Translations under genes and position numbers: made by a program
Origin: an uncultured Myxococcales bacterium
GTDB taxonomy: Bacteria; Myxococcota_A; Polyangia; Fen-1088
Direction of reading: 5' to 3'
Assembly (NCBI GenBank): GCA_964546845.1
Contig: CAZJMY010000424.1
Coordinates: forward strand, 23,672-87,671
DNA length: 64,000 nt
Notes under the pieces: generated by a model
Seen by the model: only the letters and a program-made list of their open reading frames with translations
What the model was told of the DNA's origin: nothing
The model's database searches: none
Shown: in pieces, positions 11,401 to 60,476 of the stretch
Layout of the letters: each line of letters starts with the position of its first letter
Position numbering within the stretch: position 1 is the first letter of the stretch

Positions 11401-11605
11401 CCGTGACGTACTGCTCGACCTCCGTGGGGGCGAGCGCGGGAGCCGCCGTGATGACCTGAACCTGGATGTTGGTGATGTCCGGGACGGCATCGATGGGCAG
11501 GGTGATGGCCGACCGGACGCCGACAATGATCAGCAACAGCGCCCCCAGGATCACCAGGGCGCGGTGGCGGATCGACCATGCCACGATCGCGTTGAGAAGC
11601 GCCAC
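8462..11605 (-). CDS. czcA: HME-RND efflux pump, CzcA-type (divalent cation)
   Basis: GTG start at 11605, 1 nt after the upstream TGA (track ORF trimmed by 36 codons). TM4 signature DFGLIVDGAVIIVEN is typical of the HME1/2 (Czc) classes. 1047 aa. Confidence 0.92.
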   Translation of the reverse strand: MALLNAIVAWSIRHRALVILGALLLIIVGVRSAITLPIDAVPDITNIQVQVITAAPALAPTEVEQYVTVPVERAMAGIPKVSEIRSISKYGLSVVTIVFDDGTDIYFARQMVLERMREAEDAVPAAYGRPQMGPIATGLGEVFQFVVRGEGHTLMELEETLDWYIGPQLRTVPGVVEVNSFGGEDKQYQVVIDPKRLQAASLSVGEVIHALERANANAGGGYIEHNREQVVIGTVGLVTSLADLESVVVGTTPQGVPITVANVGDVRFGPRLRRGAATMDGKGEVVVGVALMLMGENSRVVTERVKARLEELRRTLPAGITVEPFYDRSELVSRTIKTVARNLAEGAGLVVIVLLVLLGDVRAGLIVACTIPLSMLFAVTVMSLTGASGNLMSLGAIDFGLIVDGAVIIVENAVRRLAEAQRDKGSDLEAGQRPGIVKDASVEVLGASVFGTVIIGIVYLPILALRGIEGKLFHPMALTVLYALAGAFILSVTLVPVLASRFLRPARGSHDTWLMRQAHRGYTPALRRVLARPSITLAAGLVVLAAGGALLSRLGAEFVPQLDEGDLLLEARRLPGIALSETVATDSRLERALAGIAEVEHVVARAGAPEVATDPMGMEQSDVYILLKPRAEWRSGLTKAALAREVSERVEREVPEMSAAVSQPIQMRTNELIAGVRSDAAAQIYGPDLDKLQQLGGETVSALERIQGVVDVRAEQGAGLTYLRIRPDRARLARYGLTVEDVNTVTETMAVGRTVGEVFEKDRRFAMVVRTALDYQGSLDVVRALPLKSTLGQIVPLGDVADVVLETGPALVNRDKQSRRLNVEFNVRGRDVVSAVEEARAAVDAKVKLPGGYRVEWGGQFKNYASARARLAIVVPLALGLIVFLLWLAFGRVKPALLVFANIPFAAVGGVLALLARDIPFSISAGVGFIALFGVAVLNGLVLVSFCLHLQERGMSPRDAIAQAAEMRLRPVLMTALVAALGFVPMALSTAPGSEVERPLATVVIGGLITATALTLLLFPAVYALANRRPRTVDGGAPTEGGDQHDR

Positions 11606-11606
11606 G

Positions 11607-12830: not shown

Positions 12831-14152
12831 CGGGGACCTCCCGCGGCTCCTGCGAGCGGCAGTCCCACCACACGACGGAGATCGACCCACGCGATCGCGC
12901 GGGCGAGCCGCAGGTCGATGTCGCCCTGCAAGAGCTCGATCAGGCTGCGCTGCCACTGCAGCGCTTCGCGTAGCGTCAGCTGACGCGCGACGATCGCTTC
13001 GCGCAGCGCGGAGAGATCGGCCTGCGCTCGCTTGATGAGATCGGTCGCGAACAGACCGGCGGCGGCGTCCCGGGCGCGAACCGCGGCGACCGCCCGCGCT
13101 ACCTCCAGTCGCACACGCCGACGAACCAGCTCCTCCGACGCTTCGGAGGCGTGGATCTGCGCCAGGATCTCCGAGATCTCGCCCGCGCGGGTTCGGCCGA
13201 CCGGCGCCGGCAGCGGAAGCGGGATGGCGAGCCCCAGGCCCATGATCCGATCGTTGATCTCGCCGCGTTCGAAGAACGCCGAGAGGGTGGGATTCGGCAC
13301 GCGCTCGCGCCGGACGAGCGCCAGGCGGCGCTCGAGCACCTGGCGCTCCATCTCGGCGGCGCCGATCTCGCCGCGCAGCCGAAGGGCTTGCTCGTCCAAG
13401 GGTCCGGCCGGCAAGGAAGTCTGCGGCGGGAGGAGCGTCGCAGGCAACGCGAGCGTGTCCGCTTGCACGCCCAGCGTGGAGGCCAACACCGCGCGCGCCT
13501 CGTCCAGACGCCGTCCGGCCTCGACGCGCGAAAGCCCGATCCGGGCCGCCTCCGCGCGCGCGACGTCGGCCTCCACGCCCGCGGCCAGCGCCTCCTTGGC
13601 CCGCCCTTCGGCGTATGCGGCCAGCGCGCCGGCGGTCCCGTCCAGTTGCGTTGCGAAACGAAGCGACTCCTGCGCGGCGACCGCTTCGTAGTAAGCGGCG
13701 AGCGCGCCAGCGGCCACCTCTTGCTCCGCGACCTCGACCTTGCGCGTCTGGACCGCGACCGCGATCTCCGCCTCGCCGACACGCGCCGCCCGTTGGCCGC
13801 CAATCTCGAGCTCCTGAGAGACGGTCACGTTCCAGTTCAGGACCGACGCCTGTTCGGGCTGGGGCCGGCGCCGGTTCGCCACATTGCCAGATATCGTCGG
13901 ATTGCTCGGGAGCAATACGCCTGCGGTCTCGCGCCGGCCCGCGGCCGCCTGCACTTGCGCGCGAGCAGCGCGGACGTCGGGGCTCGCCGCGAGCGCGCAA
14001 CGAACCACCGTGTCAGCATCTGCCGGACGGCTGCACACCGGCGCCAGCGCGGGGCCGCCCGGTTCGGAATCAGCAGGCGCGACCTGGCCGAAGGCCGCGC
14101 GCGTCCACGCGCCGGCGACGGCGAACGCCGCCACGATCATCATACGGTTCAT
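12827..14152 (-). CDS. czcC: TolC-like outer membrane factor
   Basis: Signal peptide, two-fold repeated helical OMF architecture, and first position in the OMF-MFP-RND operon. Confidence 0.88.
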   Translation of the reverse strand: MNRMMIVAAFAVAGAWTRAAFGQVAPADSEPGGPALAPVCSRPADADTVVRCALAASPDVRAARAQVQAAAGRRETAGVLLPSNPTISGNVANRRRPQPEQASVLNWNVTVSQELEIGGQRAARVGEAEIAVAVQTRKVEVAEQEVAAGALAAYYEAVAAQESLRFATQLDGTAGALAAYAEGRAKEALAAGVEADVARAEAARIGLSRVEAGRRLDEARAVLASTLGVQADTLALPATLLPPQTSLPAGPLDEQALRLRGEIGAAEMERQVLERRLALVRRERVPNPTLSAFFERGEINDRIMGLGLAIPLPLPAPVGRTRAGEISEILAQIHASEASEELVRRRVRLEVARAVAAVRARDAAAGLFATDLIKRAQADLSALREAIVARQLTLREALQWQRSLIELLQGDIDLRLARAIAWVDLRRVVGLPLAGAAGGPR

Positions 14153-14233: not shown

Positions 14234-14566
14234 CTACGCGAGGGATTTCGGGACGTGCAGGATGTCGGCTGGTTCCGGCGAGGTGAAGCCGCCCGACGAG
14301 GAGATCCAAGAGCTCACCTGCGCGAGGGGGGCGACGAAGGCGACCGGCTCCGAGGCTGTCACCTGGGGGAGCGAGCAGCAACTGCACGAATGGCAGTTCG
14401 GCGGGCACTGCCCGCCCGAGAGATCCGTCGGGCACGGCTCGTCGCACTGCTCATCCCCGCAGAGCGCCGCCAGCCCGCTCACGTTGAACGTGAGCAGCGC
14501 GAGAAAGACGATTATCACGGCGCGCCGCACGAGGCGTGTATCCCACAACATCCGTGCGTTCGCCAC
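14234..14566 (-). CDS. small single-TM Cys-cluster protein (family member 1)
   Basis: N-terminal TM helix AVIIVFLALLTFNV followed by CGDEQCDEPCPTDLSGGQCPPNCHSCSCC. Sits at the head of the czc operon. Same architecture as 22760..23185 and 23872..24285. Confidence 0.5.
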   Translation of the reverse strand: MANARMLWDTRLVRRAVIIVFLALLTFNVSGLAALCGDEQCDEPCPTDLSGGQCPPNCHSCSCCSLPQVTASEPVAFVAPLAQVSSWISSSGGFTSPEPADILHVPKSLA

Positions 14567-14849: not shown

Positions 14850-15350
14850 TCAGCGGCGCCTCCGAGGCGATCGCGGGGAGCGGCGACGGCGGTGCTCGAC
14901 TACGGCGACCGCGACGCAGGCCATTGCGAGGATCGCTATCGATACGACCAACGCGGACCAGTCCCCGGCCGCCCCGTTCGATCGTTCGGACGCGAGCACC
15001 TGTTTTCCCTTGCGCGCCACGAGAGCGGCGACTACGGCCCGGTACGCGCTCTCCGCGGCGGCCGGCGACGACAGATCGCGACCGCGAAGAAGCTCTATCA
15101 TCTCTTTTCGTTCGCGTGCCGCGTCGGGGCAGTGGCAGGCGGACAGCGCAAGGCGCTCGCAACGATCGCAGAGGCAGACGAGATCGCCCCACAGCCGCCG
15201 TGCCACCGCGGCGGTCTGCGGATCGAGTTGCGACAGCTCGGCGGCAGCGGACGCGCCATGGTGATCGAGGTCGGACTCGGACGCAGCGGCGGGCGAGGCA
15301 GCGCTCAGGAAAGCGAGCAGCCCGACACCTACCCGCTGTGGGGTGCTCAC
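14850..15350 (-). CDS. CcmH/NrfF-like Cys-rich periplasmic protein with C-terminal TM anchor
   Basis: GTG start in a GTGA overlap with the cupredoxin gene stop. CLCDRCERLALSACHCPDAARERKEMIELL resembles the CcmH CxxC + helix pattern. C-terminal helix followed by an Arg-rich tail. Confidence 0.45.
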   Translation of the reverse strand: MSTPQRVGVGLLAFLSAASPAAASESDLDHHGASAAAELSQLDPQTAAVARRLWGDLVCLCDRCERLALSACHCPDAARERKEMIELLRGRDLSSPAAAESAYRAVVAALVARKGKQVLASERSNGAAGDWSALVVSIAILAMACVAVAVVEHRRRRSPRSPRRRR

Positions 15351-15817
15351 TGCACCTTTACCGTCCCTTTGAACATGTCCATCTTGCAAGCGTACTTGTT
15401 TTCGCCGGCCTTCGTGAACTTGGTCTTGATCGCGACGGGCTTGTTGAGCGGCAACGGCTTCTCGATCTTCTTCGAGCCGGTGTCGAGGACGACCTCCTTG
15501 ATGCAGGTCTGATCGGTCTTGCGCGTGAAGACGAGCTCGACGGGCTCGCCCTTCTTGACCTCGATGGTCGACGGCTCGAAGCCCTTGTCGGTGATGGCGA
15601 TCTCGACCTTCTCCGCGCCCTTCTTCGCTCCATCTTTGGCCTTCGCGTCCGAGGTGGGCGCGTCGGCCTTCTTGTCCATCTTCTCGGTCTTCTCGGCCTT
15701 GCCCTGGTCCATCTTCATCCCGCCCATGTCGTCGGCGGCGCCTGCCACGCGGGCGACGGTTCCGAGCGCGAAGGCGGTCAGCGAGATCAGCAGGGTGTTC
15801 TTGATTGTCCGGTTCAT
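15347..15817 (-). CDS. cupredoxin-like (EfeO-N/cupredoxin_1-type) periplasmic protein with Met/Lys-rich linker
   Basis: Signal peptide. VEIAITDKGFEPSTIEVKKGEPVELVFTRKTDQTC...YACKMDMFKGTVKV. Paralogue of 59991..60356. Confidence 0.7.
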   Translation of the reverse strand: MNRTIKNTLLISLTAFALGTVARVAGAADDMGGMKMDQGKAEKTEKMDKKADAPTSDAKAKDGAKKGAEKVEIAITDKGFEPSTIEVKKGEPVELVFTRKTDQTCIKEVVLDTGSKKIEKPLPLNKPVAIKTKFTKAGENKYACKMDMFKGTVKVQ

Positions 15818-15826
15818 GTTCAGCTC

Positions 15827-18800
15827 CTATTGCGTTTGAGTCGCGGCGGGCCAGACCACCTGGCGCGCCGTCGGTCGGTGAAGGATGTAGCTGGAGACCC
15901 CACCCAGGAACACGAGGCCGGCTGCGATCTCGCCGATGACCAGGCTGCGGCCAGGGAACGTGACGTAGATGCTCGCCACGGCGAACCCGGCAGCGAGGGC
16001 AGCCCCCGTCGCGACGATGGCCGCGTCAATCTGTTGCCGCCGGAGTAGCTGGCGCGCGCCGAGCTCCGTGAGCCGGCCCCAGAGCAACTGCTCGAGGCGC
16101 CAGTAGGTGACGATGACGGGGATGATCTCCAACGTCAGGAAAGCCGAGGTCAGCAGTCCGCCCACCATCGGCGCGGCAATCCGCTTCATGACGTCGGAGC
16201 CCGAACTGGTCGCCCAAAGGAGGGGCACCAGCCCGATCAGCATGGTGGAGACCGTCATGAGCTTTGGACGCACGCGCTGAACGGTCCCTTCCATGTGAGC
16301 GGCGACGATGTCGTCGAGGTTGCGGATGAGGCCCGCCGCTTTGCGCCGCTGGAAGGCGTGGTCGATGTACACAATCATGACGATGCCGGTCTGCGCCGCG
16401 AGGCCGACCAAGGCGATGATCCCGACCCAGACAGCCGTCGACAGCCGGTAATCGAGCAGGTACATCAGCCAGACGCTGCCGATGAGCGCGAACGGGATCG
16501 ACAACAGGATGATCAGGACCTCGATGAAGTTCCTGAACTGCAGGAACAGCAGCAGCGTGATGATCAGCAGCGTGACGGGTATGACAACCTTCATGCGCGC
16601 GAGCATCACGGCGAGCTGCTCGTACTGGCCGGTCCACTTCAGGAAGTAGCCGGCAGGTATCTTGAGATCGCCGCTCGCCATGGCCTTGGCTACCACCTCC
16701 TTCGCCTCGTTCACGTAGCCGCCGATGTCGCGCTGGCCTGAGTCGATGTCGACGTAGACGTATCCAACGAGCAGGCCCGCCTCGTCGCGCACCATGGGCG
16801 GGCCGCCGGCTACCTTGATGTCGGCGATCTGGCCGAGCGGGACGAAGCCCTGCCGGGTTGGTGCACCTGCGATACCCCCGACTGGGGCTGCCATCGGCGC
16901 GGCCATGTCGGGACTGCCGGCCATCGAGCCGCCGGACATGGTGCCCATGGGTGGCATCGGCATGTCGGTGGCCGTGGGCGGACCGCTCGGGAGGCGCGGG
17001 CGCGACATGCTCCCGGCGGACGATCCGGCCGACGTGCCGCTGCCCATGCCCTCCATGTTCTGGGCGAGGAAGATGGGGTGCGGCCAGCCCAGGGCGCCGG
17101 CCGACGCGAACATGGTTTTGCCGGGGGTGGTCTCGAGGGCCCCCTGCGAGCCCATCGGGGGCATCCCGCCGCCGGTGCTCGATCCGCCGCCCGAGCTACC
17201 ACCGCCGATCGGCACCAGCACCTGGCGCAGCGACTCGAGGTCACTGCGGAGGTCCTGCGGGTAGCGGACATTTATCGAGAAGCGGTTGCGGCCCTCGACG
17301 GTGGTGCCGATCGGCGCACCGCCGATGGCGCTCTCGATGACGCGCTCGACGTCGGCGATTCGCAGCCCGTAGCGCGCGAGCTCGTCGGGCTTCGGGGTGA
17401 TGTCCAGGTAAAGCCCGCCCAGGTTGCGCTCGTAGAGCACGCTGCGCGTCCCCTTGATGGGCGCCAGCAGGTGCTCGAGCGAGACCCCGACCTTCTCGAC
17501 CTCGTTGAGATCGGTGCCGAACACCTTGATACCGATCGGCGTGCGAACGCCCGTGGTCAGCATGTCGACGCGCGTCTTGATCGGCATCGTCCAGGCGTTG
17601 GTCCAGCCCGGAAACTGCATCTTGCCGTTCATCTCTGTCGTCAGCTCCTCCCACGACAGGCGCTGCTCCTCCGGCCAGATCGGTCGGAAGACCGGTTTGA
17701 GCCATCCGGGCGCCCAGCCCGAGTACCAGCGATCGTGATGCTTCTTCCGCCACTGCTCCGGCGGCCGCAGTTGCACCGTCGTTTCCACCATGGTGATCGG
17801 GGCGGGGTCGGTCGCGCTCTCGACGCGGCCGACCTTGCCGAACACTGTCTCGACCTCGGGGAAGCTGCGCAGGATTCGGTCCTGGTACTGGAGCTGTCGC
17901 TTCGCTTCCTCGATGGAGATGTTGGGGAACGTGATCGGCATGTAGAGGAGGTCGCCCTCGTTGAGCGGCGGCATGAACTCGTTGCCGAGGTGCATGGCGA
18001 CCGGTACCGCCGATGCGAGGGCGAGGAGGCCGATGGCGACCGTCGACTTCGGGCGCCGGAGCGCGACGTAGACGAAGGGTTCGTACAGCCGGATCAGGAA
18101 GCGCGAGACCGGGTGCTTCTTCTCGGGCAGGATCTTCCCGCGGATGAAGAGGTCCTGCAGCGCCGGCGCAAAGGTGATCGACAGCAGCGCCGAGATCAGC
18201 ATGACGAAGGTCTTGGTGTAGGCGAGCGGCTTGAAGAGCCGCCCTGCCTGCCCGTTCAGCGTGAACACTGGCAGGAACGCCACGGCGATGATCAGCAGCG
18301 AGAAGAAGATCGCCGGCGTGACCTCCTTGGCCGCCTCGATCAGGATGCGGTGCCGGTCGGCACCCGGTCCGGCGTGCTCGAGCTTCTTGTGCCCCGCCTC
18401 GATCATCACGATCTGGGCGTCGACCGTGGCGCCGATGGCGATGGCGATGCCACCGAGGCTCATGATCGTCGATGGGATGTCGAGCAGCACCATCGGGATG
18501 AACGACAGGGCCACGCTGATCGGCAGCGACAGGATCGGCAGCAGCGAGCTCCGGAAGTGGAGCAGGAACAGCATGATCACGATGCTGACGACGATCGCTT
18601 CCTCGGTGAGGGCGTGCTTCAGAGTGTCGATCGACCGCTCGATCAGTCCCGACCGGTCGTAGGCGATCTTCAGCTCGACGCCCTCCGGGAAGCTGGGCCT
18701 CAGCTCCTCGATCTTCTTCTTGACGCGGCCGATGACGTCGAGCGCGTTCTCGCCGTAGCGGGTGACGACGACCGCGCCAACCGCCTCACCCTCGCCGTTC

Positions 18801-19636
18801 CATTCAAGGAGTCCGCGCCGGATGTCTGGGCCGAAACGCACGGTGGCGACGTCCTTCACGAGCAACGGGGTGCCGCTCGGCCCGTTCGTGCGGATCGCGA
18901 TCTTCTCTATGGCGCCGAGGTCGTGGATGTAGCCGCGTCCGCGGACGTAGTACTCGCGCCCGGAGAATTCGATGATGCGGCCGCCCACGTCGTTGTTCGA
19001 CTGCCGGATAGCGTCCATGACCTCGGTCACCGTGACCCCGTAGGCGCGCAGGCGGTTGGGGTCGACGGTGACCTGGTACTGCTTCTGGTAGCCGCCCACG
19101 CTCGCTACCTCCGCGACGCCGTTCACGCTGCCGAGCGCGTACCGCAGCGTGAAGTCCTGGAACGTGCGCAGCTCGTCGAGGCTGTGCTTGCCGGACTTGT
19201 CCACCAGCGTGTACTGGAAGGTCCACCCGATTCCGGTGGCGTCGGGGCCGAGCGTCGGACTCACGCCGTCAGGTAGCGCGCCGCGGAGGCCATTCATGTA
19301 CTCGAGCACGCGGCTCCGCGCCCAGTAGATGTCGGTCCCCTCCTCGAAGATCACGTAGACGAACGACATCCCGAACATCGAGAAGCCGCGCACGTCCGTG
19401 ACGTGAGGCGTGCTGATCAGCTTGGACACGATCGGGTACGTGACCTGGTCCTCGATCAGCGTCGGACTTCGGCCCATCCACTCGGTGAAGACGATGACCT
19501 GTGGGTCCGACAGGTCAGGGATGGCGTCCAGCTTCATCTTCTTGATCGACACCAGCGACGCGACGAGCGCGAAGCCGACGCCCAGCAGGACCAGCAGCCG
19601 GTTGCGGGCACAGAACTCGATGATTTTCTCGACCAT
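15827..19636 (-). CDS. cusA: HME-RND efflux pump, CusA-type, with Met-rich insertion and C-terminal extension (1269 aa)
   Basis: TM4 signature AIGATVDAQIVMIE (monovalent Cus class). GAGGAG RBS. A ~118-aa insertion is encoded at ~16850-17213, and ~88 extra C-terminal residues contain two hydrophobic helices. Confidence 0.9.
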   Translation of the reverse strand: MVEKIIEFCARNRLLVLLGVGFALVASLVSIKKMKLDAIPDLSDPQVIVFTEWMGRSPTLIEDQVTYPIVSKLISTPHVTDVRGFSMFGMSFVYVIFEEGTDIYWARSRVLEYMNGLRGALPDGVSPTLGPDATGIGWTFQYTLVDKSGKHSLDELRTFQDFTLRYALGSVNGVAEVASVGGYQKQYQVTVDPNRLRAYGVTVTEVMDAIRQSNNDVGGRIIEFSGREYYVRGRGYIHDLGAIEKIAIRTNGPSGTPLLVKDVATVRFGPDIRRGLLEWNGEGEAVGAVVVTRYGENALDVIGRVKKKIEELRPSFPEGVELKIAYDRSGLIERSIDTLKHALTEEAIVVSIVIMLFLLHFRSSLLPILSLPISVALSFIPMVLLDIPSTIMSLGGIAIAIGATVDAQIVMIEAGHKKLEHAGPGADRHRILIEAAKEVTPAIFFSLLIIAVAFLPVFTLNGQAGRLFKPLAYTKTFVMLISALLSITFAPALQDLFIRGKILPEKKHPVSRFLIRLYEPFVYVALRRPKSTVAIGLLALASAVPVAMHLGNEFMPPLNEGDLLYMPITFPNISIEEAKRQLQYQDRILRSFPEVETVFGKVGRVESATDPAPITMVETTVQLRPPEQWRKKHHDRWYSGWAPGWLKPVFRPIWPEEQRLSWEELTTEMNGKMQFPGWTNAWTMPIKTRVDMLTTGVRTPIGIKVFGTDLNEVEKVGVSLEHLLAPIKGTRSVLYERNLGGLYLDITPKPDELARYGLRIADVERVIESAIGGAPIGTTVEGRNRFSINVRYPQDLRSDLESLRQVLVPIGGGSSGGGSSTGGGMPPMGSQGALETTPGKTMFASAGALGWPHPIFLAQNMEGMGSGTSAGSSAGSMSRPRLPSGPPTATDMPMPPMGTMSGGSMAGSPDMAAPMAAPVGGIAGAPTRQGFVPLGQIADIKVAGGPPMVRDEAGLLVGYVYVDIDSGQRDIGGYVNEAKEVVAKAMASGDLKIPAGYFLKWTGQYEQLAVMLARMKVVIPVTLLIITLLLFLQFRNFIEVLIILLSIPFALIGSVWLMYLLDYRLSTAVWVGIIALVGLAAQTGIVMIVYIDHAFQRRKAAGLIRNLDDIVAAHMEGTVQRVRPKLMTVSTMLIGLVPLLWATSSGSDVMKRIAAPMVGGLLTSAFLTLEIIPVIVTYWRLEQLLWGRLTELGARQLLRRQQIDAAIVATGAALAAGFAVASIYVTFPGRSLVIGEIAAGLVFLGGVSSYILHRPTARQVVWPAATQTQ

Positions 19637-19648
19637 GACGAATTCTCC

Positions 19649-21364
19649 TCAACGCCAAGGCTTCGGGATGGCCTTCTTGCAATCCTCTTCCATCGTTCCC
19701 ATTCCGCGGTGCTGGATCTCGCAGGCGCGGCAGGCCTGGTACTTGTCGGGGAACGTCTTCATGTCGAAGTCGGCGTCGCACGCCGACTTCGGAGCAGCGC
19801 CCCCCGTGGGCGCTTCGCCAGCGCCCGACGTCTGCCCTTCGATCGCCGCGCGGAGGCGGCTCTCGGAGTCGATGAGGAAGTTCCCGGTGGTCACCACCGT
19901 CTCGCCTTCGGCGACTCCGCTCAGGACTTCGACCCGGTCCTTCAGGTGGGAGCCGAGCTTCACCATGCGGGGCTCGAAGTGTCCGTCCTCCTTGGCCACG
20001 AACAGATACTGGGTCTCGCCTGTATCGACGACAGCTTCGGCCGCGACCATGAGGCCGGTCGTGGCCGGCAGGTCCAGGTGGACGGTGCCAAACATCCCGG
20101 GGCGAAGCCGCGGACCGGTGCGATCGAAGCGGTTCCTGAACTCGAGCCGCACCTTGAGCGTTCGACTCGCGGGGTCGACCGTCGGGTAGACGAACTGGAC
20201 CTTCCCTACGTGCGTCTCGCCCGGAAACGAGGTGAGCTCGAACCGGGCGTGCTGCCCGACGCGGATCCGCGACACATCTTGCTCGTAGATGTCCGCCGTC
20301 ACCCAGACCGTCCGAAGATCGGCGACCTGGAACAGTACCGTCCCCGGCTGGACGACGACGCCGACCAGGGCGTTCTTCGCCACGACGTAGCCTTCGACGG
20401 GTGAGCGGATCGCGATCGCGTCCACGGGCTTCCCCGATTTGACGATCTCGTCGATCTCGTGCGCCGAGATGCCCAGGAGCTCGAGCCGCCGACGCGCGTT
20501 GTCTTCCAGGCCGGCAGTCGGCGCCTCGTGATCGTGAACGCCGCCGGTGGCGGGCGGGGTGGCGCTCCAGCCGCGCGTCACCAGCAGCTCTTGTTCCGCG
20601 CGAAGGACGTCCGGGCTGTAGATCGTCGCCAGCACCTGACCGCGCCGCACGCTCTCCCCGGTCGCCGAGACCTTCAGCGACTGAACCCAGCCGCTGAACC
20701 GGGTCGTGACCTGAGCGAGGCCGCGCTCGTTCGCCTCGACCGAGCCGACCGTCCGCAGCTCGCCGCCCAGCGCCTCGCGCTTGACGACGGCGGTCTTCAT
20801 GCCGATGAGCTGGATTCGCTCCGGTGTGAGGTCGACGCCCGCGAGGCCGGGAACGGGAGCGGGCGCTGGCGGCGCGGCTGCCGCGGGCTCCGCTGCCGCT
20901 GGCCGGGGCACCATCTTCATTCCACAGTCGGGACACTTCGCGTTCGGATCGTCGGATGTCCGGTTCGGGTGCATCGGGCAGTAGTACTTGCCACCCGGCT
21001 GCGGCTGGCCTGCCGTTCCCGCCGCGGCCGCCGGCTTCATCGACGGCGACGGCTTCACCGGCCCCGTCGGCTTCGGCACCAGAGTCATGCTGCAGATCGG
21101 GCACTCGCCCGGATGGTCCTGCACCACCGCTGGGTGCATCGGGCAGTAGTAGAGCTGCCCGGACGATTCGGCCGTCGTGCCGCCGATGCGCACGCCCGCG
21201 AAGTGCATGATGGTGCCCACCGCCACCAGCGCGGTCAGGGCGACGAGGACCCACCTCACGATCGCCATCGTATGCGCGCCGCGCGGCGGCCCGACGGGCG
21301 CGGCATCGTCCGGCGGCGGCCCGTCCACCGGCGTCTTGTCGTCAATGCTCTTCAGCGTGCTCAT
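19649..21364 (-). CDS. cusB: RND membrane fusion protein with two N-terminal HMBD modules and Cys-rich C-terminus
   Basis: YYCPMHPAVVQDHPGECPICSMTLVPK and YYCPMHPNRTSDDPNAKCPDCGMKMVPR. MFP core. C-terminus ACDADF...CRACEIQH...EEDC. ATGA overlap with the OMF stop. Confidence 0.9.
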   Translation of the reverse strand: MSTLKSIDDKTPVDGPPPDDAAPVGPPRGAHTMAIVRWVLVALTALVAVGTIMHFAGVRIGGTTAESSGQLYYCPMHPAVVQDHPGECPICSMTLVPKPTGPVKPSPSMKPAAAAGTAGQPQPGGKYYCPMHPNRTSDDPNAKCPDCGMKMVPRPAAAEPAAAAPPAPAPVPGLAGVDLTPERIQLIGMKTAVVKREALGGELRTVGSVEANERGLAQVTTRFSGWVQSLKVSATGESVRRGQVLATIYSPDVLRAEQELLVTRGWSATPPATGGVHDHEAPTAGLEDNARRRLELLGISAHEIDEIVKSGKPVDAIAIRSPVEGYVVAKNALVGVVVQPGTVLFQVADLRTVWVTADIYEQDVSRIRVGQHARFELTSFPGETHVGKVQFVYPTVDPASRTLKVRLEFRNRFDRTGPRLRPGMFGTVHLDLPATTGLMVAAEAVVDTGETQYLFVAKEDGHFEPRMVKLGSHLKDRVEVLSGVAEGETVVTTGNFLIDSESRLRAAIEGQTSGAGEAPTGGAAPKSACDADFDMKTFPDKYQACRACEIQHRGMGTMEEDCKKAIPKPWR

Positions 21365-22656
21365 CGCCTCCCTCCCTCGACGGCGAGCGTCCCTGCCGCG
21401 CGTTCCAGATCGGCCTGGCTCGATGCCAGCTCCGCCAGCGCGCGCACGCGCTCGATGCGGACCTGCAGGTACGAGCGCAGGGCATCCAGGATGGTCGCCG
21501 CGTCGCCGCGTCCACCCGCGTAATCCGCCTGCGCTGCTTCCAGGCTCTTGCGCGCCTGCGCCAGCAGGTCCTGGTCGACGATCGTGAACGATTGCTTGGC
21601 CGAGTCCACGCGCGCCGCCGCATCCCGCAGCTCGTACCGCACGGCTACCTTCGCGGATTCCAGCGCGCGCTGCTCGGCGATTGCCGTCTGCTGCGCTTCC
21701 CGCTCCTCGTCATGGCGGCGGCCGGAGAGCCAGGGCAGGTTGATCGCAACCATCGCGCCGTAGGCGTGCTGGAAATCAGGAAACGTCGGCATGTACCAGT
21801 AGTCGAGGCCGACCATCAGCTGCGGGTACCGCGCCGAGAGGCGCGCGGCATCGAGCAGCGCCTGGCTGCGCCGCACGGCCCGGCTCGCGGCGTCGATCTC
21901 GGGGCGGTTCGCGTCGACGCCGCGCTCGAGCGCGGCGACATCGGCGGACGGCACCACGGTGAGATCTTCGGGCGGCCCGAGCGGCGCGTCGGCTGGGCGA
22001 TTCATGAGGGCGTTCAGGAGCGCCCGGCTCGACCGCTGCTCCCGCTCGATGCGCGCGACGTCGGTGTGAATGCGGGTCAGCTCCAACTCCAGGCGGAGGA
22101 CGTCCTGAACACTGCCGTGGCCCGTGCGCTGATTGAGCTTGGCCAGCTCCACGATCCGCGAGGTGAGGCCGGCGTGCTCGAGGTGCAGGCGCAGCTCCTG
22201 GTCAGATCGGTAGTAGACCGCGTACGTGCGGTGGACCTGCGCTGCGATGTCCTGCCGGCGCGCGCGGAGCGAATCCGCGGCGCTGCCGGCGTCCTCCGCC
22301 GCCGCCCGGCCACGGGCGTCCAGCGTTCCCCACGCCGGGAACGTCTGCCGCACGCCGAACATCACCGTGTTCGCCTCGTTCAGCGCATGAGGCCGCGCCA
22401 GGGGCACGCCCCATTGCTCGTACTTGGCCTCGAGGTCAGGCAGCCGGGACGCCGCCTGGCTGCGCGCCTCCGCGGCGCGCGCGCGTGCCTCGCCTTCCGC
22501 GACGTCGCGGTTTTGCTCCAGCGCGACGCGCAGAATCGTCTCGAGCCGTGCGCTACGGGCCAGCTCGGCCTCGTCGCCGGAGGCGGCCCGCGCGTTCCAA
22601 GCGGGCAGGAAGATGAGACAAGCAATTGCGATCGCAGTCAGTCGAACGGATCTCAT
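21361..22656 (-). CDS. cusC: TolC-like outer membrane factor
   Basis: ATG at 22656 gives the signal peptide MRSVRLTAIAIACLIFLPAWNARA. OMF repeat architecture and operon position. Confidence 0.87.
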   Translation of the reverse strand: MRSVRLTAIAIACLIFLPAWNARAASGDEAELARSARLETILRVALEQNRDVAEGEARARAAEARSQAASRLPDLEAKYEQWGVPLARPHALNEANTVMFGVRQTFPAWGTLDARGRAAAEDAGSAADSLRARRQDIAAQVHRTYAVYYRSDQELRLHLEHAGLTSRIVELAKLNQRTGHGSVQDVLRLELELTRIHTDVARIEREQRSSRALLNALMNRPADAPLGPPEDLTVVPSADVAALERGVDANRPEIDAASRAVRRSQALLDAARLSARYPQLMVGLDYWYMPTFPDFQHAYGAMVAINLPWLSGRRHDEEREAQQTAIAEQRALESAKVAVRYELRDAAARVDSAKQSFTIVDQDLLAQARKSLEAAQADYAGGRGDAATILDALRSYLQVRIERVRALAELASSQADLERAAGTLAVEGGRR

Positions 22657-22759
22657 GAGGCGCTCCCGAATCAGGATCGTTGAGGTTGTGGATACACGAA
22701 TGCCCAGAGCCACCCGGACGCGCGAGCGCGCACGAGTCAGCGTCGGTCGTGATCCGGCC

Positions 22760-23185
22760 TCAGATCAGGAACGCGTGCTTGAGGAGGACGAGGGGCGGGC
22801 CTTCGCGGGCCGGCCCATGTCGCTGCGCTGCCCGATCGAAACGAACGGCAGGAGGTAAGGCGACGGGAGCGAAAGGGGCGAGGAGAGCGACGGCGATGGT
22901 CGGCGTGAGATCGGGGGCCGACGATCGAGCGACGTCGCCTTTTGGCCGCTGGGCGTCCGCGATCTCCTGATCGCAGCAGTCCTGGGCTTTGAGGGTGGGC
23001 CCCGACGGCCGCTCCTCTTTCTGGTGCGAGCAGCAGCATGCCGTCCGCAAGAGGCCGTCGATCCGGCAGCGGAGCATCGCTTGCGCCGGCAGATAGACCA
23101 GCAGCAGCAGGGCAGGCGCGAGCGCCACCACTTTCTGCCAAAGGCTATGCCGCCGTGAAGTCACCTGTCCTAGAGAGTCCGTCAT
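22760..23185 (-). CDS. small single-TM Cys-cluster protein (family member 2)
   Basis: ATG at 23185. TM helix WQKVVALAPALLLLVYL, then RCRIDGLLRTACCCSHQ...AQDCCDQE. C-terminus PPLVLLKHAFLI matches member 3. Confidence 0.55.
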   Translation of the reverse strand: MTDSLGQVTSRRHSLWQKVVALAPALLLLVYLPAQAMLRCRIDGLLRTACCCSHQKEERPSGPTLKAQDCCDQEIADAQRPKGDVARSSAPDLTPTIAVALLAPFAPVALPPAVRFDRAAQRHGPAREGPPLVLLKHAFLI

Positions 23186-23282
23186 CGAGAGATTCCTGTC
23201 AAACCGTGGGGAAACACCGACGGGACTGTGGACAGGCCCGGTCCCGCGGATGCAGGACCGGGCCGATATCAGCCGGGCCGCA

Positions 23283-23768
23283 TTATCGCGAGCAGGCAAG
23301 CAGTCGGACGGCCGGCTTTGTGGCCCGCGGGCACGTCGGCGCCGGGGCAGCGGTCAGGGACACGCCGGGGACGACGGCTGCCTCATACTTGCGCTGCTGC
23401 GCCTCCGCCCACTGCACCATCCCCGACTTGTAGGCCGGGCCACCCATCGCCCGGTACTGCTGGGCGAGCTGGGCGTAGTGCTCGGCTTCGGGCGAGCGCG
23501 TGGCCGCTGGCGGTGCCGACAGCTGCTCCGCGAGCGCCGAGTACTTCGCGGCGTCGGCCTCCGCGCGTTGGATCATGCCGGTCTTGTACCCGACCCCGCC
23601 GAACGCGCGGTAGTGGTCCGCCTGCTCGCGATGGTGCTGCGCCATCGCCTGCGCTTCCGATGCGGTGGTGGGCTCCGCAGCCAATGCCCGGGTTGCGGGC
23701 AGGCCGAGGAGCAGCGCGCCCAGTGCGACAACGAGGTAACGAGAGGTCGATTTCGTCTTGGTAGTCAT
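23283..23768 (-). CDS. periplasmic two-repeat helical protein (family X, copy 1)
   Basis: Signal peptide. Internal repeat HYRAFGGVGYKTGMIQRAEADAAKY / QYRAMGGPAYKSGMVQWAEAQQRKY. Paralogue of 24483..25028. Confidence 0.6.
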   Translation of the reverse strand: MTTKTKSTSRYLVVALGALLLGLPATRALAAEPTTASEAQAMAQHHREQADHYRAFGGVGYKTGMIQRAEADAAKYSALAEQLSAPPAATRSPEAEHYAQLAQQYRAMGGPAYKSGMVQWAEAQQRKYEAAVVPGVSLTAAPAPTCPRATKPAVRLLACSR

Positions 23769-23871
23769 GACACACGTATCCTTTCGGTCCGAATCAGTCC
23801 CGTGAGCCTTTCGGCCGAGGGCGCCACAGGACGACGCGCGCCTCGGTCCGCCGTGCACGAACGGCGGCGGC

Positions 23872-24285
23872 TCAGATCAGGAAGGACTGCTTGGCCAGAA
23901 GGATCGGGACGGCCCGCGGGGGAGGCTGCGCCAGTCGGAAGGCCGGCCGCGTCTCAGCGCTCGGAGCGAAGGTGTCTATCGCGAGGAACGATTCAGGCGC
24001 GAGGAAGACCTTTGCCGTCGGCGCCGCAGCACGCGGCACAGTGACCGCCGTCGTGGGGCGCGCGTCGGCGCGGGAAACGCGGCAGCAACAGGCAGGAGAA
24101 ACCGTGGCCCGGTCAGTCGCGCCGGCAGCCCCGCTGTTGTGCCCGCCCGGGCAGCAGCACTCGGTGCGCGCGACCTGGTCGCCTTCGCAGACGAAGCTGA
24201 GAGCGCCCGACGCGAAGGCCGGCGTCACCAGCAGCGACAATGTCGCCACCGCGATCCAGAGCCTACGCAGACCGCTGAGCCTCAT
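23872..24285 (-). CDS. small single-TM Cys-cluster protein (family member 3)
   Basis: ATG at 24285. Signal/TM segment LWIAVATLSLLVTPAFA, then FVCEGDQVARTECCCPGG...SPACCCRVS. C-terminus VPILLAKQSFLI. Confidence 0.55.
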   Translation of the reverse strand: MRLSGLRRLWIAVATLSLLVTPAFASGALSFVCEGDQVARTECCCPGGHNSGAAGATDRATVSPACCCRVSRADARPTTAVTVPRAAAPTAKVFLAPESFLAIDTFAPSAETRPAFRLAQPPPRAVPILLAKQSFLI

Positions 24286-24482
24286 GCTTGTCGTTACGAA
24301 TGTGACCGCTCGGCGGTTACAACGCAAGGGGCGATGAGCAGGGGCGGCTTGGTGCATGGCGTCCATCGCGGAATCTCGTGCTCTTCACCTGGAGACGCAG
24401 CCGAGACCGAGTCCTTACACCCCGAAAGGTAGAAAGCGTCGATCTCGGCTACATCGAGGGGACGTTTCTGGCGGTGCCAGCA

Positions 24483-25028
24483 TCAATCTCGGACTGCCAG
24501 GAAGCAGACGATCGGCTTACTCGACCGGCAGGAGTGGTCGGTTGTGTGCATCGTTGCCGCGTCAGACATCGCTACCATCTCGTACTTTCGCTGCTGCGCC
24601 TCGGCCCACTGGACCAGGCCGGCCTTGTACGCGACGCCGCCCATCTGGCGGTAGCCCGCGGCTAGCTGCGCGTAGCGGTCGGCCTCAGGCGAGCGCTGCG
24701 CGTCTACTGCGGTGGGCCCGCGCAGCTCGATCGCCAGCGCGGTGTACTTCGCGGCCTCGGCTTCGGCCCGCTGCACGAGGCCCGCCTTGTAGCCGACACC
24801 GCCGAATGCTCTGTAGCGAACAGCGAGCTCACGATAGTGCTGCGCTCTCGCTTCGGCCGCCTCGGGGGTGAAAACCTCGAGCGCCGCGGTCGAAGTCTCC
24901 GCCGCGATCGATTGTGGCGGCGACGCCGTGGCCGTCACGGAAGCTTCGGGCTCCGCGGCCAGCGCGCTCGCAAGGGGGAGGGCGGCCAAGAATGCGCCCA
25001 CGATGACTCTCGAAATGTTGCTCTTCAT
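24483..25028 (-). CDS. periplasmic two-repeat helical protein (family X, copy 2)
   Basis: Signal peptide. Repeats RYRAFGGVGYKAGLVQRAEAEAAKY / GYRQMGGVAYKAGLVQWAEAQQRKY. C-terminal two-Cys tail as in copy 1. Confidence 0.6.
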   Translation of the reverse strand: MKSNISRVIVGAFLAALPLASALAAEPEASVTATASPPQSIAAETSTAALEVFTPEAAEARAQHYRELAVRYRAFGGVGYKAGLVQRAEAEAAKYTALAIELRGPTAVDAQRSPEADRYAQLAAGYRQMGGVAYKAGLVQWAEAQQRKYEMVAMSDAATMHTTDHSCRSSKPIVCFLAVRD

Positions 25029-25130
25029 GACTGGGATCCTTTCGGCGAACCGTGATGTTGAGATGTCCACTGATGCCTTCCCTACGCCGCCTGCTGCCGT
25101 CAGTTACGACCCGGCGGCTGGGGCGCATCC

Positions 25131-25697
25131 GTGGCAGACTTGCGCGCCGTGAGCGCGACGAACCGACAGGAACAAATGCTCGCCGAGCACCACCGGCAGT
25201 TCCTCGCCTTCCTCCGACCGCGCGTCGAGATCGACGCTGTTGCGGAGGACATCCTCCAGGATGCGTACGCGAAGAGTGTCAGCAGGTCGGCGGAAATCCG
25301 GGACGACGACAGTGTCGTGGCCTGGTTCTATCGGGTGCTACGAAACGCCGTCGTCGATCACTACCGCCGAGCAGGGGCGGACCGGAATACACGCGCCCGC
25401 TTCGAGACTGAGACCGAGGGATCGTTCGAGCCTGAGCTGCGCGACAACGTCTGCACCTGCGTCAGCTCCTTGCTCCCGGATCTGAAACCCGAATACGCCG
25501 ACATCCTCACCGCCGTCGACCTGAACGAGCGCTCGATCGGGGAGGTCGCGGCGGAGCGGGGGCTCACCGCCAACAACACCACCGTCCGGCTCCATCGAGC
25601 GCGCGCCGCTCTTCGTCGCCGGCTCGTAGACGTGTGCGGCGCATGCAGCGACCACGGCTGCATCGACTGTACCTGTCGAACGTCGCCACCGCGCTGA
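25131..25697 (+). CDS. ECF sigma-70 factor with C-terminal Cys-rich extension (CorE-like)
   Basis: Region 2 (AEDILQDAYAK...WFYRVLRNAVVDHYRR) and region 4 (LNERSIGEVAAERGLTANNTTVRLHRARAALRR), plus VCTC in the linker and CGACSDHGCIDCTC at the C-terminus. Start uncertain (GTG 25131 or ATG 25176). Confidence 0.85.
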   Translation: MADLRAVSATNRQEQMLAEHHRQFLAFLRPRVEIDAVAEDILQDAYAKSVSRSAEIRDDDSVVAWFYRVLRNAVVDHYRRAGADRNTRARFETETEGSFEPELRDNVCTCVSSLLPDLKPEYADILTAVDLNERSIGEVAAERGLTANNTTVRLHRARAALRRRLVDVCGACSDHGCIDCTCRTSPPR

Positions 25698-27678: not shown

Positions 27679-28863
27679 CTAGAGCTGTCCGCGGACGCCG
27701 AGGAGGAAGACTCCCCCTCTCGCTCGAGGCAGCAGCGACGCGATGCCGTCGTTCTCCGAAAGCGTGAATGCGTAGACAGCGGTGTACAGCCGGAGCCGGG
27801 TCTCGAGGCGATAAGAGGCACCGATCTCGGCTGCGTACAGCTCGTTCCTGCTCACCGAGCCGTCGCGCCTGTGCGCCTGCTGCACGAACCCACCGGCGTC
27901 CCACGGGCCGGACTCGCGGTTTACGCTGGCAGTGAATCCGTAACCGATGCTCGACGACGGATCGTCCAGCATGAGTGTTCGCCGAGCGTAGTCGAGCGAG
28001 CCGCTGGCGCCGACGATCCACTCGTCATTGACCACCAGGGTGATGCCGGCGTTTCCGGAGTGGAGGTCGCGCGGAAACCTGCCACCCGCGCCGTCGCTGA
28101 GCGTCTGATGCCCGAATCCGTAGCTTCCCCCGATGCGCAGCACGTTCTGGCCAAAGTAGCGCTCGTGGACGATTCCGGCCTGCGCCGAGGAGGCGTAGTC
28201 CGCGCCGAACGGTGTGGGGTCTGCATTGGTTGTCCCCGCGAGCCCGAGCTGCAGACCGAAGAAGCGCGGGGAGACGTATATGAGCTTCGGCGAGAAGTCA
28301 CCCGCGAACGCCGTCGCGATACCGAGATAACTGAGGCTTGCTACTGCCGTCGCCACCGCGGGTGCGAGCAATGCCGTTTGCAAGCCGCCATGCGGAAACA
28401 GGTTGAGGCCGGAAGGTGGACCGAACTCGACGCCGGTGAAGGTGTAGCTGTTGGGCGCGTAGCCAACCAGTGTGTCCGGCAGCCCCTGCCGATAGCCAAG
28501 TTCGAGGCGACCCCACGGGGTGCTCAGGACCAGGCTGCGGTCTCCCACGCCTACCGGCCCCTGTCCCACACTCTGGACGACCACCCGCGGGCCGAAGCTG
28601 AAGCCGCCGGGGGCCTCTATACGAAGGTATGTGCGTAGCGCGATGTCGGCGCGACCGCGAAGCGCGTGCTCGGGTCGCGGTCCCTTCAGCCCGTCGACGA
28701 CGCCTCCTGTGAGGTTCGCGAAGCCCTCGACGGTCGCTGCGAAGGGCCGCTCGTCGCCCGAGATCTGTGCCTCGACTGCTGCGGGACGAAGCAGCACGAA
28801 CATGGCCGCAGCAGCTGCGATCGAGACCGCGAGGTCTCCCCTACAAACGCGAACATTTGGCAT
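27679..28863 (-). CDS. porin-like outer-membrane beta-barrel protein
   Basis: ATG at 28863 gives a signal peptide. Alternating beta-strand pattern rich in G/Y/F/R/D with frequent YGF / GxSY motifs. Function inferred from composition only. Confidence 0.55.
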
Positions 28864-29143
28864 TTGGCATCCTGGCCTCTCACGGGCCGTAGCCAATACG
28901 CCGGGTGAGCCCGGAGTTACGCCTCGACCCAAAATCGCCAGGAGAATGTCCGCCACCCTGCCGAACCGGAGCACGGGCGCAGCTCAAACGCCGAGCTCGG
29001 GTTGCTCGCGAGCAGCGGTTTCGGACGCCCGCATGGATGCAAGGCCTGAGTGGGCATGAGCGCGGCGGAGACGCCGTATCGCCAGCGAGTACGTGCCCGG
29101 ACCGAGCTCCCGTCGCGTCCGGGCGCCTCTACACGCCGCGCTC

Positions 29144-32261: not shown

Positions 32262-32447
32262 TCAGCGAGAGCTCTTGGGCAGTTCAGCCCCAGGAACCGG
32301 GGGGCCACCATAGGAGCTGAACGGCGCGTGGTGCCGAAAGCCGCCGCCAGCCAGGTGAATCACGGCGAACACCACGACGAACGCCACAGCCAGAACGCCG
32401 CAGACCTTCACCCAGCGCGGGGCTCCCGGATACGGTTGTCGCTCCAT
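32262..32447 (-). CDS. small single-TM protein
   Basis: ATG at 32447 (the track start at 32483 is TTG). The stop lies 5 nt before the next gene. TM helix VCGVLAVAFVVVFAVIHLAGG. Confidence 0.4.
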   Translation of the reverse strand: MERQPYPGAPRWVKVCGVLAVAFVVVFAVIHLAGGGFRHHAPFSSYGGPPVPGAELPKSSR

Positions 32448-32516
32448 GGGGATCGGTTTTACGATACAAAGTGTCGCTATCAATTCACTGTGTCTCTCTT
32501 TTTCTTGGGTCGGCCG

Positions 32517-32522
32517 TATAAT
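32517..32522 (+). promoter_or_regulatory. consensus -10 hexamer TATAAT 6 nt upstream of the TetR GTG start (possible leaderless transcript)
   Basis: A perfect TATAAT in an otherwise very GC-rich intergenic region. No convincing -35 found. Confidence 0.25.
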
Positions 32523-32528
32523 GCAACC

Positions 32529-33098
32529 GTGCCGCGGCTATGGAACGACACCATCGAGACTCACCGGCGTGAGGTGCGCGACGCTATCCTGCAGACGACG
32601 GCCTCGCTCGCCAGCAAGCACGGGCTCACCGCCGTCACCGTGTCCCAGATCGCCGAGGAGACGGGGATCGGTCGCGCCACGCTCTACAAATATTTCCCCG
32701 ACGTAGAGGCCATCCTCGTCGCCTGGCACGACCAACACGTCGAGGCGCACCTCGAACATCTCGCTCGCCTCATTGACCAGCCGGGGAGCGCGGGCGAGCG
32801 GCTCCAGAGCGTCCTGTCGATGTACGCGCGCATTCAACACGAGCGCCACGGCTACCAATTCTCTCCGCTCGTCCACCGCGGCGAGCACGTCGCCCTCGCG
32901 GAGCAGAAGCTTCGGACGTTCCTGCGGGAGCTCATCGCAAAGGCTGCCAAGACCGGCGAGGTGCGTGACGACCTGGCGCCAGACGAGCTCGCCGGGTACT
33001 GCCTGCACGCGCTCTCAGGCGCGGGTGGTCTGCCTTCGCAGGCCGCCGTCCAGCGGCTGGTCAAGGTGACCCTGGCCGGCCTCCGGCCCGCGCGCTAG
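32529..33098 (+). CDS. TetR-family transcriptional regulator
   Basis: GTG start in the frame of track ORF 32328..33098. [30 protein letters not shown]. 189 aa. Confidence 0.85.
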
Positions 33099-33217
33099 GT
33101 GCCCGCAGAGTCGGCACGGGCCTCGGTCAAAGGCATGGAGTATGCACCGGGTGTAAGGCCGCAAGGCCGAGCGCGTCTCCTAGTAGTGAAACGGAGAGCG
33201 GAAAAGGAGATCGCGAG

Positions 33218-60356: not shown

Positions 60357-60476
60357 GTCGGCCTCCCGCGCGATTGTGGATCGAAACGGGAGTGGTGTCT
60401 GCCACGAGCGGTCGCCTGTGACTCCAACGGTTACATTGTCCTTCCAAAACGACCTCCGTAGACTGCTTGGCCTGCA

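Follow-up and report, generated by a model that had tools for sequence, protein, structure and literature searches.

An ECF sigma factor of the CorE-like type is encoded at positions 25131-25697 of the window, by which we mean the whole 64,000-nucleotide stretch of DNA from an uncultured Myxococcales bacterium that was analyzed. The gene is a further CorE-like sigma gene, an ordinary addition to a known family. The comparisons described below make it probable, and we hold this with good confidence, that its product senses a metal, most likely copper, by itself and without an anti-sigma factor, and that it activates two promoters of the form TGTAA(G/T)-N16-CGTC, the neighboring bufferin operon probably being no direct target. 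It is the only sigma factor of this type in the genome, a 6.45-Mb MAG with 70.7% G+C that is 84% complete.

The sigma gene and its cysteine motifs

The open reading frame at 25131-25697 (plus strand) predicts a protein of 188 residues ending in ...VDVCGACSDHGCIDCTCRTSPPR*, with the stop codon at 25695-25697. According to Pfam, the protein comprises sigma2 and sigma4 domains only, with Sigma70_r2 at residues 18-82 and Sigma70_r4_2 at residues 110-161, both above cut-off. NCBIfam TIGR02937 (sigma70-ECF) scored 54.8 bits against a cut-off of 42.9, and the top specific NCBIfam match was SigZ (TIGR02959/NF007215; E of 7e-28 over residues 14-175), with 98 bits, far below the equivalog cut-off of 212. 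The reading frame, the stop codon and the two sigma regions agree with the original prediction made for this gene. Its start codon is to be moved: the true start is most likely GTG 25149, which gives a protein of 182 residues, because the N termini of orthologues (MSAP.../MTAP...) align at V7 of the 188-residue frame and because an upstream element, TGnCA(A/G/C)nnT followed after 7 to 9 nt by the start codon, is conserved in 12 orthologous loci. The gene call in the source annotation starts at ATG 25176 (173 residues). Cysteine and histidine residues are numbered from 25131 (188-residue frame) throughout, as in the original prediction. The features of the gene are as follows.

25131-25697, plus strand: CorE-like ECF sigma factor gene (open reading frame and translation; Sigma70_r2 and Sigma70_r4_2; SigZ as best NCBIfam match)
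25132-25140, plus strand: TGnCAnnnT element TGGCAGACT, 8 nt before GTG 25149 and common to 12 orthologous loci
25452-25460, plus strand: CxC motif (Cys108-Thr-Cys110) in the sigma2-sigma4 linker, invariant in 28 homologues
25635-25694, plus strand: Cys-rich C-terminal domain, C169-G-A-C172-S-D-H175-G-C177-I-D-C180-T-C182 plus a 6-residue tail, with conserved Cys and His

The element TGGCAGACT may be read as the extended -10 of a sigma70-type promoter, from which the sigma mRNA would be leaderless. A generic scan for sigma70 promoters and terminators around the gene returned nothing useful. No ECF-type motif was found upstream of the gene on the plus strand, which fits the incomplete autoregulation reported for CorE-like sigma factors.

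The original prediction had named seven cysteines (108, 110, 169, 172, 177, 180 and 182) and had proposed their loss in orthologues as an observation that would count against it. All seven are found at these positions, and neither they nor His175 vary among 28 homologues with identities down to 48%. In an alignment of 110 homologues, the same set is invariant or at least 90% conserved; in the 182-residue numbering of that alignment, C102 is invariant and C104 is at least 90% conserved. The tail follows the pattern C-x2-C-x2-H-x-C-x2-C-x-C over approximately 20 residues. Its cysteines (C-x2-C-x4-C-x2-C-x-C) are kept in 157 of 162 relatives translated from their loci, the histidine also being kept in 126 of these 157. 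An AlphaFold2 model based on 110 sequences (mean pLDDT of 79, pTM of 0.43) resolves the two sigma domains well. The tail (165-182) and the linker (85-93), in contrast, have pLDDT values of less than 50, and the model neither supports nor rejects a contact between the CxC motif and the tail.

This arrangement corresponds to the published definition of CorE-like sigma factors. A CxC motif between sigma2 and sigma4.2 is their defining, essential and strictly conserved motif (PMC4937300, PMC6851896), and a C-terminal Cys-rich domain (CRD) of 21 to 50 residues, which is essential for activity, follows sigma4. Four cysteines, equivalent to 181, 184, 192 and 194 of CorE, define this tail. The family is further characterized by the lack of an anti-sigma factor, a metal-related gene context and incomplete autoregulation. 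In the protein studied, C169, C172, C180 and C182 match the spacing of the four defining cysteines, C177 corresponds to C189 of CorE, and H175 is present in addition; the length of the tail lies at the short end of the CRD range. The alignments support the conclusion that every sequence-level signature of the CorE-like type is present and conserved, and with it the original prediction of a CorE-like sigma factor with a Cys-rich tail.

The former group ECF44 (CorE-like) has been merged into ECF238, where Casas-Pastor et al. placed SigZ alongside CorE2. Membership of the protein studied in ECF238 is suggested indirectly, by SigZ being the best match and by homologues with 49 to 54% identity in the four genera named below. 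Assignment to a group with a separate anti-sigma partner had been named at the outset as a finding that would argue against the prediction; the best family match, SigZ, is a member of ECF238. SigZ of Bacillus subtilis (ECF238 subgroup 9), the best curated family match, likewise has no anti-sigma factor, but it carries only two C-terminal cysteines.

Comparison with the two CorE proteins of Myxococcus xanthus can be made residue by residue. CorE (MXAN_3426), which is copper dependent, has its CxC motif at C120/C122 and its tail cysteines at C181, C184, C189, C192 and C194, and these published residue numbers give the same spacing as in the protein studied, with a constant offset of 12. Both proteins consist of sigma2 and sigma4, lack an anti-sigma factor and have copper genes in their neighborhood. 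The tail of CorE is, however, longer, with 38 residues and a sixth cysteine that is absent from the tail of approximately 20 residues studied here. CorE2 (MXAN_5263), which is Cd/Zn dependent and belongs to ECF238 subgroup 15, is nearly identical in length and numbering; the CxC motif is at 108/110 in both proteins, and the tail cysteines are offset by 0 to 1 (C178 of CorE2 corresponding to C189 of CorE).

Homologues with 49 to 54% identity are present in genomes of Myxococcus, Pyxidicoccus, Corallococcus and Archangium. Loci of the first two genera were considered as orthologues of CorE or CorE2 and rejected as such, because their neighbors match neither published locus; they are further paralogues. 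The family is widespread, occurring in Myxococcota, Acidobacteriota, Nitrospirota, Planctomycetota and Gemmatimonadota. The distribution of the sigma factor in the host genus is patchy: an orthologue with 66 to 68% identity was found in two genomes, and a relative with 44 to 48% identity in ten.

Neighborhood, candidate family promoter and predicted targets

Four small genes lie divergently from the sigma gene on the minus strand. They form two paralogous pairs, in each of which a repeat protein is combined with a Cys-rich single-pass protein, and none of the four matched a Pfam or NCBIfam family. They are followed by genes for an outer-membrane factor (OEP), a CusB protein with an HMBD, a pump of the CusA/CzcA family and a CopI-like cupredoxin. 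On the other side, convergent with the sigma gene, are bufC (DUF2063), bufB (MNIO, with a score that exceeds the equivalog cut-off for BufB) and bufA (DUF2282, BufA1), with a porin gene preceding them. Pfam and NCBIfam therefore identify both flanks as the original prediction had described them, namely, a cus operon with accessory genes on one side and a bufferin-type cluster on the other. It had also stated that no anti-sigma-like gene is adjacent. In keeping with this, Pfam and NCBIfam detected no anti-sigma domain in the called genes within about 5 to 6 kb of the sigma gene, and the four small divergent proteins are without a cytoplasmic N-terminal domain. With the cus-type pump, the cupredoxin, the bufferin cluster and a CopA-type ATPase gene around it, the sigma gene is located in an island of copper-resistance genes, in agreement with the metal-related context of the family.

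In orthologues with 65 to 73% identity, the neighbor that is kept is the divergent small-protein/cusCBA operon and not the bufferin cluster. The order of this operon is preserved beside the sigma gene at loci L085, L086, L088 and L089 and on the contig of P0005, and partly at L092 and L102. Among distant relatives, it is genes for a CopA-like ATPase and for CusB that mostly adjoin the sigma gene, and P1B ATPases of the same kind flank it in 26 of 80 distant loci.

The intergenic regions before the ATPase genes that lie beside distant family members share a candidate promoter, TGTAA(G/T)-N16-CGTC, which was present in all 11 of those inspected and in 102 of 160 family loci. Of 122 matches, 90 lie at most 500 bp from the sigma gene, which corresponds to approximately 6 per 10 kb, compared with 0 to 0.3 beyond 1.5 kb downstream. 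Upstream of the sigma genes, scattered matches reach approximately 3.5 kb and mostly stand in front of ATPase genes located 5' of the sigma gene. Positions outside the search pattern are conserved as well (93% have T at -1, 91% have C at +27 and 71% have T two bases before CGTC), as are GC and then TGAA downstream of the motif. The forms tolerated in the family are GTAA(G/T)-N16-CGT(C/T), and CGTA is never paired with N16. The exact motif is absent from the three myxococcal relatives that were checked (L002, L005 and L012). The -35 proposed for CorE contains AAC, which differs from the TGTAA(G/T) of this motif; as a candidate family promoter the motif is new here, in that it was not found written out in the CorE-like literature examined.

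Two exact copies of the motif are present in the window, whereas 0.03 would be expected from shuffles. A weight matrix (PWM) built from 98 family sites gave these two sites the top scores in the genome, with 26.5 bits for the site at 24394-24419 and 20.0 for that at 33152-33177; the next score was 18.4, inside a coding sequence, and the one after it 14. Both sites lie less than 8 kb from the gene and are predicted targets of the sigma factor studied. The sites and the genes behind them are listed below.

24394-24419, minus strand: predicted target promoter 1, TGTAAG-N16-CGTC(T), exact motif with 26.5 bits, in the gap that separates the first divergent gene from the Cys-rich gene
15347-24366, minus strand: predicted target operon (gene calls, Pfam and NCBIfam; CusA/CzcA, CopI-like)
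23872-24366 or 23872-24285, minus strand: Cys-rich small protein at the head of the operon
23283-23768, minus strand: repeat protein
22760-23185, minus strand: second Cys-rich small protein
21361-22713, minus strand: OEP
19649-21364, minus strand: CusB with HMBD
15827-19636, minus strand: CusA
15347-15817, minus strand: CopI-like cupredoxin
33152-33177, plus strand: predicted target promoter 2, TGTAAG-N16-CGTC(T), exact motif with 20.0 bits, 41 nt separating its end from the copA start codon
33218-35599, plus strand: CopA-like copper-type P1B ATPase of 793 residues that contains a CGM...FC domain at its N terminus, an HMBD and the motifs CPC and MSLSS

The ATPase scored 587 bits with TIGR01511 (cut-off of 397), and 643 as CopA versus 351 as ZntA. 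In orthologues with 69 to 71% identity, the motif is kept before the same divergent operon, and at L085, L086 and L092 it occupies the corresponding position; in other orthologues it lies a short way 3' of the sigma gene and precedes genes that encode HMBD motifs. From the position and conservation of these sites, the sigma factor most likely switches on the cusCBA-type operon and the CopA-type ATPase. [quoted passage not shown]

The nature of the metal can be addressed through a single position of the tail. In M. xanthus, one residue after the second tail cysteine switches metal specificity, this being Ala185 in the Cu-sensing CorE and Cys174 in the Cd/Zn-sensing CorE2, which controls a CDF transporter. 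The protein studied has Ser173 at this position, which differs from CorE2 and, like the alanine of CorE, is not a cysteine. Among 157 relatives the position is occupied by Ala, Ser or Thr in 155 and by Leu or Val in 2, and never by Cys. Copper is favored because of this serine, the CorE-like spacing of the cysteines and the copper-exporter character of the predicted targets. It is unlikely, in our judgment, that the tail and the CxC motif, instead of sensing copper, bind Zn/Cd in the manner of CorE2, or that they coordinate a structural zinc or form a redox-sensitive thiol/metal center as a reporter of oxidative stress. Such a reading would draw on the response of CorE2 to Cd/Zn with the same architecture and a single switching residue, on reviews that liken the CRD and the CxC motif to the redox-sensing motifs of ZAS proteins, on the invariant His175, which is absent from the discussion in the CorE papers examined, and on the disorder of the tail in the metal-free AlphaFold2 model. 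It does not agree with the near-uniform Ala/Ser/Thr at the specificity position, nor with the predicted targets being a Cu-type P1B ATPase, a CusCBA-type pump and a CopI-like cupredoxin, nor with the location of family members, mostly beside CopA-like ATPases and CusB genes. Copper thus remains the most likely metal.

The GTAAC...CGTA elements and the bufferin operon

A different pattern, GTAAC...CGTA, is matched four times in the window, against 0.09 matches expected. Three of the matches are intergenic and lie on both sides of the sigma gene, as follows.

25083-25107, minus strand: GTAACT-N15-CGTA, SigF-type, upstream of the first divergent gene (24483-25028)
24295-24320, minus strand: GTAACC-N16-CGTA, with ATG 24285 following after 9 nt and target promoter 1 lying 99 nt upstream
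28897-28920, minus strand: GTAACT-N14-CGTA, SigF-type, upstream of the porin-bufA-bufB-bufC operon, in a region with a family PWM score of -11

The fourth, at 60164-60188, falls within the coding sequence of a cupredoxin and was discounted as probably due to chance.

A search of the regions 25029-25130, 28864-29143 and 60357-60476 for a shared -35/-10 pair had been proposed originally; the implied idea that such a pair would belong to this sigma factor is not supported. Two of the three regions do share an element, GTAACT-N14/15-CGTA. This motif is, however, of the SigF type, and the family PWM gave scores between -20 and -9, far below zero, in all three regions. Elsewhere in the genome, the GTAACC...CGTA motif is found before a DoxX-sigF-nrsF operon (contig C596) and a gene for a secreted MsrB-MsrA fusion, and a contig of only 3 kb (C96) carries four copies, before DoxX, orphan bufA-like, GlcG-like and glycosidase-like genes. 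The genome encodes two NrsF (DUF1109) homologues above the Pfam cut-off, on C596 and on contig C995, each directly behind an ECF sigma gene. The SigF-like sigma factor of C596, where the pair is complete, is 23% identical to the one studied and has no Cys tail. The sigma factor studied departs from the SigF/NrsF group, which is recognized by a co-transcribed DUF1109 gene and by the absence of a Cys-rich tail.

The SigF-NrsF system of Caulobacter vibrioides offers a precedent for these elements. It too is an ECF sigma factor tied to metal stress and bufferin clusters, and it controls both bufferin operons through GTAACC-N16-CGAA, a site that resembles the elements at 25083-25107, 24295-24320 and 28897-28920; moreover, sigma/NrsF genes are known as members of Buf1 clusters. 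SigF-NrsF nevertheless belongs to a different family, being paired with the membrane anti-sigma factor NrsF and lacking a Cys tail.

GTAAC-N15-17-CGTA was rejected as the promoter of the sigma factor studied, since it precedes sigF-nrsF and orphan bufferin/DoxX genes and resembles the published SigF site, and since the CorE-like family uses another motif. We consider it quite unlikely that this sigma factor nonetheless reads GTAAC(T/C)-N14-16-CGTA, in addition to or instead of the family motif, such that the gene at 24483-25028, the cus-type operon and the porin-bufferin operon would form one regulon. The excess of the pattern over chance and its intergenic placement on both sides of the sigma gene would suit such a regulon, as would the conservation, beside the sigma gene of orthologues, of the element before the Cys-rich gene; furthermore, the elements at 25083-25107 and 28897-28920 share CGTAACT...CGGCGTA, slightly unlike the TGTAACC class found elsewhere in the genome. 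The 160 family loci, however, are enriched in GTAA(G/T)-N16-CGT(C/T), and GTAAC-N16-CGTA occurs 0 times near their sigma genes. Other contigs carry the motif before bufferin-related genes as well as before the DoxX-sigF-nrsF operon, and it matches the Caulobacter SigF site, which is experimentally defined and governs bufferin operons. Finally, the porin-bufferin cluster is absent beside orthologous sigma genes, and no homologue of the porin (E of at most 1e-20) was found in 24 genomes of the same genus. Given the SigF-type motif and the two NrsF/sigma pairs in the genome, the bufferin operon is more likely to be under SigF-like control, and it is probably not a direct target of the CorE-like sigma factor.

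The element at 24295-24320 is conserved at L085, L086, L088, L089 and L102, with a variant at L092. It could be a second promoter, either SigF-type or sigma70-type (TTGCGT-N17-CACATT), or an element of the 5' UTR. As an observation apart from the assignment of the bufferin operon, the presence of GTAAC...CGTA elements at the cus-type operon suggests that other regulators act on this operon.

Proposed mechanism of metal-dependent activation

Activation of the sigma factor by metal has been shown experimentally for CorE and CorE2 of M. xanthus. By analogy with these proteins, the sigma factor studied would be inactive until the CxC motif and the tail cysteines bind a metal, which is most likely copper. 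Its gene would be transcribed constitutively from the extended -10, giving a leaderless mRNA translated from GTG 25149, without autoregulation. The corE gene, in contrast, is partly autoregulated, whereas the gene studied has no ECF-type motif upstream; CorE2 is closer in this respect, its own gene not being induced by metal and no anti-sigma factor accompanying it. Once active, the sigma factor would direct RNA polymerase to the two strong TGTAA(G/T)-N16-CGTC promoters less than 8 kb from its gene. Promoter 1 would give rise to the small Cys-rich and repeat proteins, CusC, CusB, CusA and the CopI-like cupredoxin, and promoter 2 to the CopA-type ATPase. The MAG being 84% complete, more target promoters or an unlinked partner may be absent from the assembly.

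Direct sensing of metal by a C-terminal Cys-rich extension is also described for OrbS of Burkholderia cenocepacia, an ECF-type sigma factor for iron starvation. OrbS belongs to another ECF group and responds to iron and not to copper, and the metal is reported to repress its activity.

Control by an unrecognized partner, be it one of the small divergent Cys-rich membrane proteins or an unlinked anti-sigma factor, with the tail as only a docking site, is very improbable: a Cys-rich single-pass gene does adjoin the sigma gene at L085, L086, L088, L089, L092 and L102 and, judged by layout, on the P0005 contig, the MAG is incomplete, and in M. xanthus the lipoprotein MXAN_5262, which is not an anti-sigma factor, modulates the response of CorE2, but the small proteins carry no anti-sigma domain and their N termini have hardly any cytoplasmic part, their genes are divergent and stand behind a predicted target promoter and so look like targets, they are missing in distant family members, and over-expression and genetic tests with CorE revealed no anti-sigma factor. 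The reading preferred here is accordingly that of a sigma factor that would respond to its metal without a partner.

A more elaborate version of this reading is possible, although we regard it as doubtful. The cus operon may be wired to two ECF sigma factors, with a distal TGTAAG-N16-CGTC promoter served by the CorE-like sigma factor and proximal and upstream GTAAC...CGTA elements served by SigF/NrsF, which would also act on the bufferin genes; in addition, the invariant histidine could mean a metal site unlike the one proposed for CorE. If this were true, cytoplasmic and envelope copper signals would be combined at one operon.

The findings place a CorE-like sigma factor in the phylum in which the CorE-like family was discovered. 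The bufferin operon is set apart from this sigma factor and assigned, probably, to control of the SigF type, as in Caulobacter. The predicted regulon of two units would tie Cys-rich proteins that have so far been unannotated to cytoplasmic copper sensing, and the family-wide candidate promoter TGTAA(G/T)-N16-CGT(C/T) would allow the regulon of any CorE-like sigma factor to be predicted. Because they need no partner, such sigma factors are attractive as metal biosensors made of one protein, and a defined promoter makes this use testable.

Downstream conservation in the CorE-family promoter

The CorE-family promoter, TGTAA(G/T)-N16-CGTC, is unusual in being conserved downstream, near the expected transcription start. 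Across the family sites (98 loci, e.g., L022, L034, and L080), the −10 element CGTC is followed by (A/T)GC and, 5 to 6 nt further, by TGAA, with a C at +27 in 91% of the sites. In the window, this downstream extension occupies positions 24381-24393 and 33178-33190. A TetR-family regulator gene (32328-33098, + strand) ends 54 nt upstream of the CorE-type promoter of copA, and because of this proximity copA may also be under a second regulator.

Scanned with the CorE-family promoter matrix, the window gives its third-highest score (4.0 bits) at 14990-15013 (− strand), where GCAAGG-N15-CGTC sits in the gap upstream of the second cus-type operon. This match is weak and may be due to chance. The operon comprises:

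14234-14566, small Cys-rich gene
12827-14152, OEP
8462-11713, CusA

SigF/NrsF-type motif

Outside the window, the motif TGTAACC-N15-CGTA points to a probable regulon of SigF/NrsF (an ECF sigma and anti-sigma pair) in the same genome, where it was found on five other contigs:

C96, 1491-2620
C596, 5080-6977
C627, 963
C10, 1555
C181, 471 and 2618

The 3-kb contig C96 carries four copies, ahead of DoxX, an orphan DUF2282-like bufA, a GlcG-like gene, and a glycosidase-like gene, and one copy on C596 lies upstream of DoxX-sigF-nrsF. Further copies in the genome lie ahead of an SDR gene and of a gene for a secreted MsrB-MsrA fusion.

Within the window, a related element lies 9 to 11 nt upstream of the Cys-rich gene's start codon:

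24295-24320, − strand, GTAACC-N16-CGTA element

It is conserved at the equivalent place in five loci carrying orthologues of the sigma gene (L085, L086, L088, L089, and L102), and within it lie a CGTAA direct repeat and a small GC dyad (CCGCC.GGCGG). The element may serve as a promoter, either SigF-type or sigma70-type (TTGCGT-N17-CACATT), or as a 5′-UTR structure. Another GTAAC-N16-CGTA match, at 60164-60188 (− strand), falls within a CopI-like cupredoxin coding sequence (59991-60356), and the − strand downstream of it carries no gene. Chance is the probable explanation, even though the expectation for the whole window is only 0.09 matches.

Repeat proteins and the porin-bufferin unit

Two paralogous secreted proteins, 51 to 57% identical, are encoded at:

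24483-25028, − strand
23283-23768, − strand

Each contains two copies of the repeat HYR..A..YRA.GG..YK.G.VQ.AEA...KY and a C-terminal Cys pair. Neither matched any Pfam or NCBIfam family, and both were found again in orthologous cus-type operons.

The bufferin operon is headed by a porin:

27679-28863, − strand

A further 24 genomes from the same genus yielded no homologue of this porin at E ≤ 1e-20, a distribution that makes the porin-bufferin unit look like a recent acquisition in the host lineage.
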